Origin: a virus | Direction: 5' to 3' (one strand) | Virus record (IMG/VR): IMGVR_UViG_3300006802_000076 | Span: 30,498 to 94,497 of that record | DNA length: 64,000 bases | Part shown: positions 30,128 through 35,910 of the stretch, one piece after another | How positions within the stretch are numbered: the stretch's first letter is position 1 | How the letters are laid out: each line of letters starts with the position of its first letter | Position numbers and translations under genes: made by a program | Notes under the pieces: generated by a model | What the model was told of the DNA's origin: nothing | What the model saw: only the letters and a program-made list of their open reading frames with translations | Databases searched by the model: none

Positions 30128-30645
30128 ACATATGTCTTGATATTGATGGTGTAATCGCTGATATTGCTGGTGGTATCAACAGGAAATTAGATAAGCTAGG
30201 TGTTGAAAATTATGACTATGCACATTGGCTTATTGGATTGTCGGATGACAACCTTTATCCAACTGTATTCAGTGATTACAATTTCTGGAGAAATCTAAAA
30301 CCTTTTACTGATGCATGGTATGCTGTCAATGGATGGTGGGAGAGGGGTTACGATGTTCATCTGATTACCGCTAGATCTTCTCCTGAGTCTATGAATACAG
30401 CATTCTCTTGGCTGGAGGATTGGAGGTTTCAATATTCATCTCTTCATTTTGTTGAGATGGGCAAAAAGATTGAAACTGTTAAAGATCTGAATGGGGATAT
30501 TTTTGTTGAAGATAATCCATATGAGTTGAAAATTGTACAAGATGCCGGTGTGAGGTGTTTTCTTCGTCGGGCTTGGTATAATAGTCCTCATTGGGAATCT
30601 TTTGATTCGATTTCTAGCTTGTTGGAGGTTGATTTAGGTGAGTGA
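30124..30645 (+). CDS. HAD-family 5'(3')-deoxyribonucleotidase-like
   Basis: DIDGVIAD, ITAR, K, FVEDN motifs. Confidence 0.85.
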   Translation: MNICLDIDGVIADIAGGINRKLDKLGVENYDYAHWLIGLSDDNLYPTVFSDYNFWRNLKPFTDAWYAVNGWWERGYDVHLITARSSPESMNTAFSWLEDWRFQYSSLHFVEMGKKIETVKDLNGDIFVEDNPYELKIVQDAGVRCFLRRAWYNSPHWESFDSISSLLEVDLGE

Positions 30646-30775
30646 TCGTAGGAAGTATTCTGGTCTTGAGTCTTTAGTTGTTGGTGGTGTGCCTGCTGTT
30701 TGCACTTTTCTTTATGATTGGCGGCTTGGTGTGGCTTGGTTGTGTTTTGCCTTGATTGCCGGTTCCAGCCGTTGA
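30638..30775 (+). CDS. Small hydrophobic ORF (45 aa)
   Basis: GTG start overlapping upstream gene; may be a by-product of the G+T tract. Confidence 0.3.
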   Translation: MSDRRKYSGLESLVVGGVPAVCTFLYDWRLGVAWLCFALIAGSSR

Positions 30776-30852
30776 TGGCCGCGCGCCCTTTGATTGGGTT
30801 TTAAAATTTTTTACTATCCGTTTGTTGTGTTTGTTGTGTTTGGGGTGTTTTT

Positions 30853-34233: not shown

Positions 34234-34951
34234 TGATGAGTTGTTTTTGATTGAGAATGAGTATGGTAAGGTCCGATATTTTAAGAATGATTTCGAGATG
34301 CTTAAGCAGGTTGGTGCTAATCTTATTTTTGATCAGTATTATGTTGTTAATTATTTGATGGCTAATATTGTTTCTTCTAATGTTGTTCTTGATATTGGTG
34401 CTCATTGTGGTTCTCATACTGTTTTGTATAAGGCTATGAATCCTGATCTTGAGGTGTATGCTTTTGAGCCGCAGTCTAGGTTGTTTGAGCTTCTTGAGAG
34501 CAATGTTGAGTTGAATGGTTTAACTGATGTTCATTGTTTGAATACTGCTGTTGGTAATCGTATTGGTGGTGCGGTTATGAATAACTTTTCTACAGATGGT
34601 GAGAATGCTTATTCTTCTCTTGAGTACGGTACTGATAAGGTTATGAATCTTGCTGGGGTGCAGGTTTGTGAGGATTCTTTGTCTGAGTCTTCTGGTGAGT
34701 CTGTTCGTATGATCACTATTGATAGCTTGAATCTTTCTGATTGTGATTTTATGAAGATTGATGTTGAGGGGTTTGAGCCTTACGTTTTGTTGGGTGCTAT
34801 GGAGACGATTGATAAATTTTCTCCGAATATCAGCTTTGAGTCGAATCAAAAAACTTGTAATGCTGGTGTAACTTCTTTCGAAGTTCTGCATGAGCTTGGG
34901 TATTTGTGTGTTAATCTGTCTGGCGACGACTGGGTCGCTTTTAGAAAATAA
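34223..34951 (+). CDS. FkbM-family SAM methyltransferase
   Basis: 'VLDIGAHCG', 'AFEPQ', 'MKIDVEGFE..VL.GA'. Confidence 0.88.
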   Translation: MLADDELFLIENEYGKVRYFKNDFEMLKQVGANLIFDQYYVVNYLMANIVSSNVVLDIGAHCGSHTVLYKAMNPDLEVYAFEPQSRLFELLESNVELNGLTDVHCLNTAVGNRIGGAVMNNFSTDGENAYSSLEYGTDKVMNLAGVQVCEDSLSESSGESVRMITIDSLNLSDCDFMKIDVEGFEPYVLLGAMETIDKFSPNISFESNQKTCNAGVTSFEVLHELGYLCVNLSGDDWVAFRK

Positions 34952-34968
34952 AAACATTTAGGAGATGT

Positions 34969-35910
34969 ATGTTATTCATTGATAAGCGGAAGGGCGATAT
35001 TGTCCCTAAGCATGAGGTTATTCCAACGCCTAGTATCGGTTTGAACCGGGCTTTAGGTGGCGGTTTGTATACGGGTGCTACGCATCTTTTTTGGGGTACG
35101 CCGTCTGTTGGTAAGACTACGATGTGTTTCAGGATTCTTTCTGAGGCCCAAAAGATGGGGTATCGTCCAATAATTATTGATTCGGAGTATTCGTATTCTG
35201 AAGAGTATGCTGCTAAATGTGGAATTGATGTTTCTGATGTTGTCCTTGTCCAGTCAACGGTTGTTGAAGATATTCTGCGGCATCTGATCGGGTATTTAAA
35301 TCATCCTGATGAGAAGCATATTTTCCTGTTCGATAGTCTTTCTAATATCATCAAGGAAGAGTTTTATGACAAGCCTGATGGTGGTAAGGCGATGGGTTTG
35401 CAAGCACGTTCGCAGGGGTACTTCTTGCAGAAGCTGGTAAATCATCTACATAAGGAGCGGAATATCATGCTTTTTGTTGCCCATCAGACTGTTGACTTGA
35501 GTGGTATGTATGCTGTGATGAAGGCAAAGATGGGGAATACGGTTCATCATAATATGCATAATATTGTTAAGCTGTTTCTGTCAATGTCGCAGAAGGAAAT
35601 GGAGCGTGAAGATCGCACTAATAAGATTACGAGTCAGCGTGCCACTTGGACCATTGAGAAGACTAAGCAGTTACCCACTATTGGTACGCAGGGGTATTAC
35701 TATGTGCTGCCGCAGCAGGGGCGTATCGATCAGCGTCGTGAGTTGATTGAGATGGCTGTTGAGGCTGATATTATTCAGCGTCGTGGTGCTTGGTATTCTT
35801 ACGGTGAAGAAAAATGGAATGGTATGGGAGCTATTGATCTCTCTGACGAACAGGCGTCTGGTATTTATGATATCCTAGTTAATGGAAAGGTTGTTGATGA
35901 AGAGGGATGA
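34969..35910 (+). CDS. recA: RecA/UvsX-like recombinase
   Basis: 'TPSIGLNRALGGG', GTPSVGKT, 'FDSL', 'QRRGAWYSY'. Confidence 0.9.
   Translation: MLFIDKRKGDIVPKHEVIPTPSIGLNRALGGGLYTGATHLFWGTPSVGKTTMCFRILSEAQKMGYRPIIIDSEYSYSEEYAAKCGIDVSDVVLVQSTVVEDILRHLIGYLNHPDEKHIFLFDSLSNIIKEEFYDKPDGGKAMGLQARSQGYFLQKLVNHLHKERNIMLFVAHQTVDLSGMYAVMKAKMGNTVHHNMHNIVKLFLSMSQKEMEREDRTNKITSQRATWTIEKTKQLPTIGTQGYYYVLPQQGRIDQRRELIEMAVEADIIQRRGAWYSYGEEKWNGMGAIDLSDEQASGIYDILVNGKVVDEEG

Follow-up and report, generated by a model that had tools for sequence, protein, structure and literature searches.

A stretch of 64,000 nucleotides of viral DNA (the window, namely the last 64 kb of the 94,497-bp linear IMG/VR record IMGVR_UViG_3300006802_000076, whose completeness is estimated at 91%) carries a tract, centered on the DNA polymerase gene dnaE, in which the + strand is dominated by G and T. 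The tract is real and extreme. It is a variant of a published yet unexplained skew phenomenon: a recurrent, strand-specific, and position-dependent mutation tract. The underlying mutation pressure acts on one DNA strand, varies with position, has recurred in several lineages, and is ongoing. Below, coordinates are window positions unless marked "genome", and K3 denotes the G+T share at third codon positions, for which the background is 0.64.

In 300-nt windows, G+T averages 0.566 over the whole window (standard deviation 0.057), climbs from 0.58 to 0.74 between 30350 and 30650, holds at 0.67-0.77 over 30501-34850, and is down to 0.58 by 35300. Across the tract, about 4.3 kb in length, the GC skew is 0.40-0.50 and the AT skew -0.35 to -0.47; the values at 31001-32000 are +0.50 and -0.47, as compared with about +0.15 and about 0 elsewhere. 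A first-pass annotation, made from the letters of this DNA, had counted 49 G or T in a run of 60 nt and described the third positions of dnaE as almost all T or G. Both statements hold, the former at 31020-31079 and the latter with a K3 of 0.98 (G.37, T.61, A.00, more exactly 0.003, and C.02), vs 0.66 and 0.48 at first and second positions (K1 and K2). Among the 1126 codons of dnaE, 3 end in A and 23 in C. The parts of the tract and the genes around it are the following.

30547..34825, + strand: saturated part of the G+T tract, with K3 0.92-1.00 and all-site G+T 0.67-0.77
34826..37662, + strand: decaying tail, with K3 0.80 in the recA-like gene and then 0.74-0.70, the background being 0.64
30853..34233, + strand: dnaE, encoding a Pol III alpha-type polymerase with PHP, pol3_alpha, finger, and HHH_6 domains; K3 0.98
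30814..33402, - strand: antisense open reading frame (ORF) of 862 amino acids (aa), not a gene, whose register is that of the dnaE codons
30124..30645, + strand: HAD/5'-nucleotidase-like gene, 173 aa, with the left edge of the tract at its codon ~140
30638..30775, + strand: conserved 45-aa ORF, formerly taken as spacer, with a YDWRLGVAW motif common to positions 8890-9072 of the related locus L012
30776..30852, no strand: true spacer, with GGCCGCGCGCCC, then TTGATT-N16-TACTAT, then a G/T-rich leader
34223..34951, + strand: FkbM-family methyltransferase, a cargo gene, with K3 0.92-0.96 until ~34825 and 0.67 thereafter
34969..35910, + strand: RecA/UvsX-like recombinase, with K3 0.80, flat along the gene
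28905..29828, + strand: DUF550 dATP/dGTP pyrophosphohydrolase gene and tRNA-Lys(TTT), forming an upstream module

Read along the third codon positions, the left edge lies at ~30547, within the 3' part of the upstream gene, where G+T jumps from 0.57 to 0.74, so that the sharp start described at first stands whereas its position, ~30640, does not. The biased spacer reported between the two genes is for the most part the 45-aa ORF; the G/T-rich leader of the true spacer is indeed biased, while its GC-rich block retains A and C. The TTGATT-N16-TACTAT element in this spacer is promoter-like by eye and is absent from the list returned by the promoter scan. Downstream of dnaE, K3 is 0.89 in the FkbM gene, 0.80 in the recA-like gene, and then 0.74, 0.69, 0.73, 0.72, and 0.70. 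The fade through these genes had been recognized correctly; the third-position string adds a step down at ~34825 within the FkbM gene, and the tail extends to ~37660, where background is reached, rather than ending at 35900.

In dnaE, the bias is visible well beyond the wobble position. TTG makes up 0.83 of the Leu codons and CTG 0.01 (genome background 0.23 and 0.09), and this collapse of CTG to TTG implies that synonymous C>T changes at the first position have been fixed as well. First-position A goes from 0.31 to 0.21. Set against a consensus built from 21 unskewed orthologues, the replacements favor one direction (I>V 13:2, K>R 11:1, Y>F 8:1, and E>D 8:1), and residue ratios to normal relatives are 1.38 for Val, 1.37 for Gly, 1.31 for Cys, 0.61 for Gln, 0.82 for Thr, and 0.89 for His, with Ile, Gln, Asn, and Lys down and Pro not reduced. 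A is depleted more than C at all codon positions, and whether a given A or C disappears depends little on its neighbors. At four-fold sites purines shift to T as well, NCA to NCT being as frequent as NCA to NCG, hence the changes are not transitions alone. The protein is nonetheless kept, with deviant amino-acid make-up and a long branch: PF02811, PF07733, PF17657, and PF14579 all match above their cut-offs, and 434 alignment columns are invariant across the family, in agreement with the canonical motifs noted earlier. A loss of PHP or catalytic residues was looked for in the skewed DnaE, and none was found. The pressure acts on every site and is filtered by selection. The 862-aa antisense ORF was rightly read as a product of the codon bias: it exists because dnaE contains no TTA, CTA, or TCA codon before codon 876, the first TTA being at 33478.

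The tract recurs. Relatives were collected as 80 viral contigs with a DnaE at 63-82% identity, each considered as a locus of ~20 kb, and the tract is present in 19 of them, in three or four separate lineages whose sisters are normal. Clade A has 12 loci besides the window; in every one of these 13 sequences the skew sets in upstream of dnaE and decays 5'>3', with K3 between 0.74 and 0.98. Clade B consists of the pairs L022/L051 and L014/L035, each nested among normal sisters, with a patch limited to dnaE codons ~300-900 and a K3 of up to 0.97. In clade C (L057 and L065), the bias starts near dnaE codon 260 and has faded by codon 500-600. The loci outside these three clades have a K3 of 0.53-0.66. 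Across the 80 loci, every 400-nt window with G+T of at least 0.68 falls between the nucleotidase-like gene and just past dnaE (in L002 such windows reach into the gene after dnaE), a zone that comes after the helicase, primase, and single-stranded DNA-binding protein (SSB)-like gene, and A+C-rich 400-nt windows are absent from all of them. A search for G/T-only 50-60-mers in the records of ten relatives gave a single weak match. A complete relative, G010 (the record behind L053; 108,687 bp), has direct terminal repeats and no keto skew anywhere, its G+T being about 0.50.

The import of a block from a donor of such composition, or an assembly chimera, would account for edges that lie within genes and would suit a family with mosaic genomes. 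It is very improbable: the 19 contigs come, by their IMG/VR identifiers, from many different metagenome samples, protein identity profiles reveal no foreign block, the nearest cultured homologues, from Streptomyces phages, are unskewed, and the protein is conserved at the 434 invariant columns. Furthermore, the proteins encoded by the clade B patches are 0.83-0.92 identical to normal sisters and 0.65-0.73 to clade A, and since the proteins closest to each patch are those of its unskewed sisters, the patches formed in place rather than by import. The first-pass annotation had set out simple horizontal transfer and assembly chimera as the findings that would undo its reading, and neither applies.

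By comparison of the loci, the bias follows position, that is the distance from a start point, and not the gene. In L012, the tract runs from codon ~25 of the upstream gene; K3 is 0.93 in that gene, in a small ORF, and in the PAPS-reductase-like cargo gene inserted in this phage, and dnaE carries the decaying tail, from 0.9 to 0.6. The slot after dnaE holds cargo genes that differ between phages and are skewed according to their location. In the window, its FkbM gene is also saturated; a tblastn comparison with three relatives (G001, G007, and G010) gave no match for this gene, and the slot is filled by other genes in L002, L003, L012, and L022. Five clade A loci, close relatives of the window, share a homologous edge position, which is codon ~25 in the HAD/5'-nucleotidase-like gene and ~110 nt past a conserved GC hairpin. 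The start site first proposed, at 30777-30815, must be abandoned in view of this shared edge and of its own location ~230 nt inside the tract. The edge seen in the window, at codon ~140, probably marks a junction left by recombination, because the DUF550 and tRNA-Lys module is inserted upstream in the window alone, with no match in the same three relatives, which suggests that the upstream flank was exchanged by recombination. The phage with the DUF550 module also shows the strongest loss of A among the phages compared. A Z-genome, an idea prompted by the DUF550 pyrophosphohydrolase, was discarded as no PurZ or adenylosuccinate synthetase gene is present.

Selection for a G+T-rich, A+C-poor strand was considered on several grounds: structure-free single strands, fewer palindromic restriction sites, a recombination or homing barrier in the polymerase gene, or freedom from A-ending codons at a time when the phage tRNAs are not yet available. 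Every patch does include part of dnaE, clade B has two sharp edges, and the four phage tRNAs read AAA, AGA, TTA, and ATA. C-ending codons vanish too, however, and cargo genes, non-coding DNA, and a gene on the opposite strand are all affected, while the graded decay matches no known functional element, so that selection has little to recommend it. As regards timing, L022 and L051 differ by third-position transitions at 4.5% in the patch vs 11-18% in the flanks; fewer such differences in the patch are what continued pressure predicts, and the process is therefore still active.

A second and purer tract, outside the window at genome 2990-4400 (L082), separates DNA strand from coding strand. It has an abrupt left edge and a rightward decay, reaches 94% G+T on the + strand at genome 3001-3200, and contains G4-G6 runs. 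It starts right after an array (genome 1-2990) of six tandem units of ~500 bp each and 60% GC, in each of which the box GAATACGTGCGAAAC and two hairpins, one of them covarying and the other a perfect GC hairpin (GCCCCGGGGCCGAAGCCCCGGGGC), surround different small ORFs. The box has no occurrence elsewhere in this genome, and the 14-nt core AATACGTGCGAAAC gave single chance matches only in other viral contigs, the array being therefore private to this contig. GCGCGCC, a candidate for a motif shared by both tract starts, was taken as chance because its offsets differ at the two starts and the genome holds 5 copies. In the left tract, a minus-strand methyltransferase gene has an A/C wobble of 1.00, 0.88, and 0.70 with growing distance and encodes a C-terminus rich in Thr, His, Pro, and Gln. 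The pressure acts on the DNA strand and not on the coding strand. A/C wobble in minus-strand genes excludes translational selection, mRNA composition, and coupling to sense transcription as general causes, and it upholds the earlier opinion that host codon adaptation is insufficient.

Transcription could still act in another form, with a strong rightward promoter, possibly through a primer R-loop, exposing the non-template + strand, which is then deaminated or damaged. Tract direction and transcription direction coincide, the clade A start ~110 nt past the GC hairpin is at the start of a gene block, the small-gene region at 45.9-53.6 kb likewise has a raised K3, and the G4-G6 runs of the left tract resemble mitochondrial primer sites. 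On the other hand, the left tract is antisense to the genes it covers, no promoter-like site is predicted at the tract edge in the window, the starts in clades B and C fall within dnaE and are not clearly set apart from normal sisters by a promoter, and T enrichment weakens RNA:DNA hybrids. Coupling to transcription or R-loops is thus unlikely in our judgment.

The explanation that we favor, tentatively and at a little under even confidence, is that fixed starts in the replication module launch DNA synthesis, or strand exposure, that proceeds rightwards and strand-asymmetrically. It fits because both large tracts have a sharp left edge, G+T on the + strand, and a rightward decay; to this extent the first-pass proposal of a one-strand mutational bias, anchored at start points and decaying with distance, is sustained. 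In this account, the tract records a heritable and still active pressure that depletes the + strand of its amino bases, A and C, wherever selection permits, by C>T, A>G, and some A>T changes, beginning at discrete points and weakening rightwards over 1-5 kb. Synthesis, be it origin-, nick-, or R-loop-primed, would start at fixed sites of the replication module and run rightwards. By one route, the nascent + (leading) strand would carry uncorrected G:T mispairs made by a DnaE-type or initiating polymerase, the error-prone phase ending at the hand-over to a faithful replisome; by another, the parental + strand would be displaced and then damaged while single-stranded. The literature supports the mispairing route inasmuch as the leading strand of Corynebacterium, which has a DnaE replicase, shows the direction and the ranking seen in the tract, with A>G over T>C at 48 v 13 and C>T over G>A at 67 v 40, and the NucS enzyme of this organism cuts G/T, G/G, and T/T mismatches only (PMC6159521). 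ColE1 replication passes gradually from Pol I to Pol III, over a distance of 1.3 kb or more, and a hand-over of this kind makes possible a kilobase-scale footprint that decays from a fixed start (PMC3167613). Damage to an exposed strand accounts better for the A>T changes, and prolonged single-strandedness is possible.

Several observations weigh against synthesis from fixed starts. Start points vary by lineage, upstream of dnaE in clade A and inside it in clades B and C, and the sharp right edge of clade B at codon ~900 is not predicted by simple decay. The tract edges showed neither an origin nor a nick site, iterons, or a conserved motif, the promoter and terminator scan at the tract edge in the window gave nothing above chance, and the genome lacks a gene for a second polymerase (PolA). 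G:T mispairing leaves the A>T component unexplained, A is purged more than C, unlike in spontaneous single-strand deamination, and the host is no more than presumed to be actinobacterial, from a gene order common to Streptomyces phages. We infer the link to the start of DNA synthesis, and the chemistry, the former because neither origin-like repeats nor a nick motif nor a promoter was found at the edges. Two other candidates were rejected: a genome end as the start point, the G010 terminus mapping near genome 89.5 kb, at neither tract; and reverse-transcriptase mutagenesis by a diversity-generating retroelement, with no RVT_1 match in the genome and no repeat copy.

The chemistry also brings in enzymatic deamination, whereby a phage or host nucleic-acid deaminase would edit the exposed + strand, an idea compatible with the synthesis or transcription models. 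The phage encodes, at 51607-52047, a 146-aa protein of the cytidine deaminase (CDA) fold (PF00383; HAEVNA...PCEYC), and among 46 family records this gene occurs in only three clade A contigs and in none of the 4 complete unskewed genomes. The clade A contig G004 spans the syntenic site yet is devoid of it, the G001 copy is not orthologous, and the clade B and C fragments do not have it. In addition, the sequence seems to be that of an ordinary dCMP deaminase in a phage that also has ThyX, and a target-context preference is absent. Natural DNA adenine deaminases are not established. We hold an enzymatic origin to be improbable.

Calling the process undescribed was too strong, as intense nucleotide skews with correlated GC and TA components have been published under the name GRINS, without a mechanism (PMC8256042). 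GRINS skews are intense, positively correlated, and strongest at third codon positions, and they are frequent in Streptomyces/Actinobacteria and in replication and recombination genes; their cause is not established, and the paper raises the possibility of error-prone synthesis that produces C>T and A>G (PMC8256042). They are defined by a length above 500 bp, a mean absolute GC and TA skew above 0.15, and a duplicate more than 80% identical in the same cluster or genome. With about 4.3 kb, GC skew of 0.40-0.50, and AT skew of -0.35 to -0.47, the tract exceeds the first two thresholds, and its skews are likewise correlated and strongest at third positions (K3 0.98 vs K1 0.66 and K2 0.48). It has, however, no second copy: a self-blastn of 30541-35000 against the whole 94.5-kb genome returned only the self-match, and because this defining duplication is absent the tract is not filed as GRINS. 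The two share abrupt edges and proteins that are still functional, and the amino-acid signature is found in the DnaE of the tract, where GGN, GTN, and TGY codons (Gly, Val, and Cys) are up and ACN and CAN codons (with Thr and Gln) are down, Pro not being reduced. They differ in that the tract is single-copy, of one sign only, polar, with a kilobase-scale decay from a start point, located in phage genomes, and far more saturated (K3 0.98).

Other known asymmetries resemble the tract in part. Replication strand asymmetry, including that of the Corynebacterium DnaE/NucS system, has the same C>T and A>G direction with A>G the more asymmetric (PMC6159521), whereas chromosomal replication skews amount to a few per cent over whole replichores and the tract saturates synonymous sites over 1-5 kb. 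Asymmetry of the coding strand, associated with transcription, does not describe it, as the left tract gives minus-strand genes an A/C wobble of up to 1.00. The mitochondrial strand-displacement gradient is alike in its keto-rich skew graded from a synthesis start and, at one start, in a non-coding stretch rich in G runs. In vertebrate mitochondrial DNA, the exposed strand reaches saturation for C>T earlier than for A>G; this order, C>T first and A>G lagging, is not that of the tract, whose more depleted base is A (A3 0.003 and C3 0.02 in dnaE). The error-prone Pol I footprint of ColE1 (PMC3167613), nickase-polymerase systems, and T7 RNAP-deaminase fusions have, like the tract, a fixed start, a direction, and a decay over ~1-4 kb. 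These are laboratory systems, whereas the tract is natural, long inherited, and filtered by selection.

The record is that of a tailed phage encoding a portal, a prohead protease, a class II ribonucleotide reductase, ThyX, and a 3644-aa tape measure; for this giant protein, an identity as virion RNA polymerase was rejected. The replication and recombination block (25948-40654) comprises, in order, DnaB-like helicase, primase, a 212-aa protein, DnaE, RecA-like protein, PD-(D/E)XK nuclease, RuvC, and glycosyltransferase. Its gene order is that of Streptomyces phage BillNye (Stanwilliamsviridae; NC_042105.1, 47916-61073, L210), in which the slot of the 212-aa protein is an annotated SSB and an HNH endonuclease stands immediately upstream of dnaE. 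BillNye DnaE is also the best cultured match to the phage DnaE, at 39% identity. Because this gene order is shared with Streptomyces phages, it hints at an actinobacterial host, a reasonable guess and no more. The four tRNAs, at 29756, 47406, 59085, and 59729, read AAA, AGA, TTA, and ATA, a set consistent with a low-GC phage in a host short of tRNAs for A-ending codons. Elsewhere in the window, a small-gene block at 45950-53650 has a raised but unsaturated K3 (0.73-0.84) with no sharp edge, and mild K3 bumps occur at the matching relative place in G001 and G002. Finally, at 63470-63600 and 63620-63750 there is a mirror-image patch, non-coding, 86% A+C on the + strand and with a sharp right edge, together with 3 or 4 TTATGCAnAATTAC-like repeats directly adjoining it; the same process may run leftwards there from a regulatory or origin-like site.

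An essential gene of 1126 codons with 98% G/T wobble is far beyond known codon or skew variation. Annotators who meet such a tract should be prepared for long antisense ORFs that are spurious and for a distorted amino-acid composition. The relatives form a natural series, in which starts, strengths, and lengths vary beside unaffected sisters, and this makes the cause testable. It is possible, and we put it forward with more doubt than confidence, that some phages harbor a natural, site-anchored zone of directional hypermutation that rewrites kilobases of one strand to G/T, through synthesis from fixed starts in the replication module with uncorrected keto-keto mispairs or strand exposure. If true, such a zone would be a natural counterpart of engineered targeted mutators and would supply a mechanism for the unexplained skews of the GRINS type. 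The tracts would then be markers, recognizable from sequence only, of phage replication starts, and the origins of uncultured phages would become readable.

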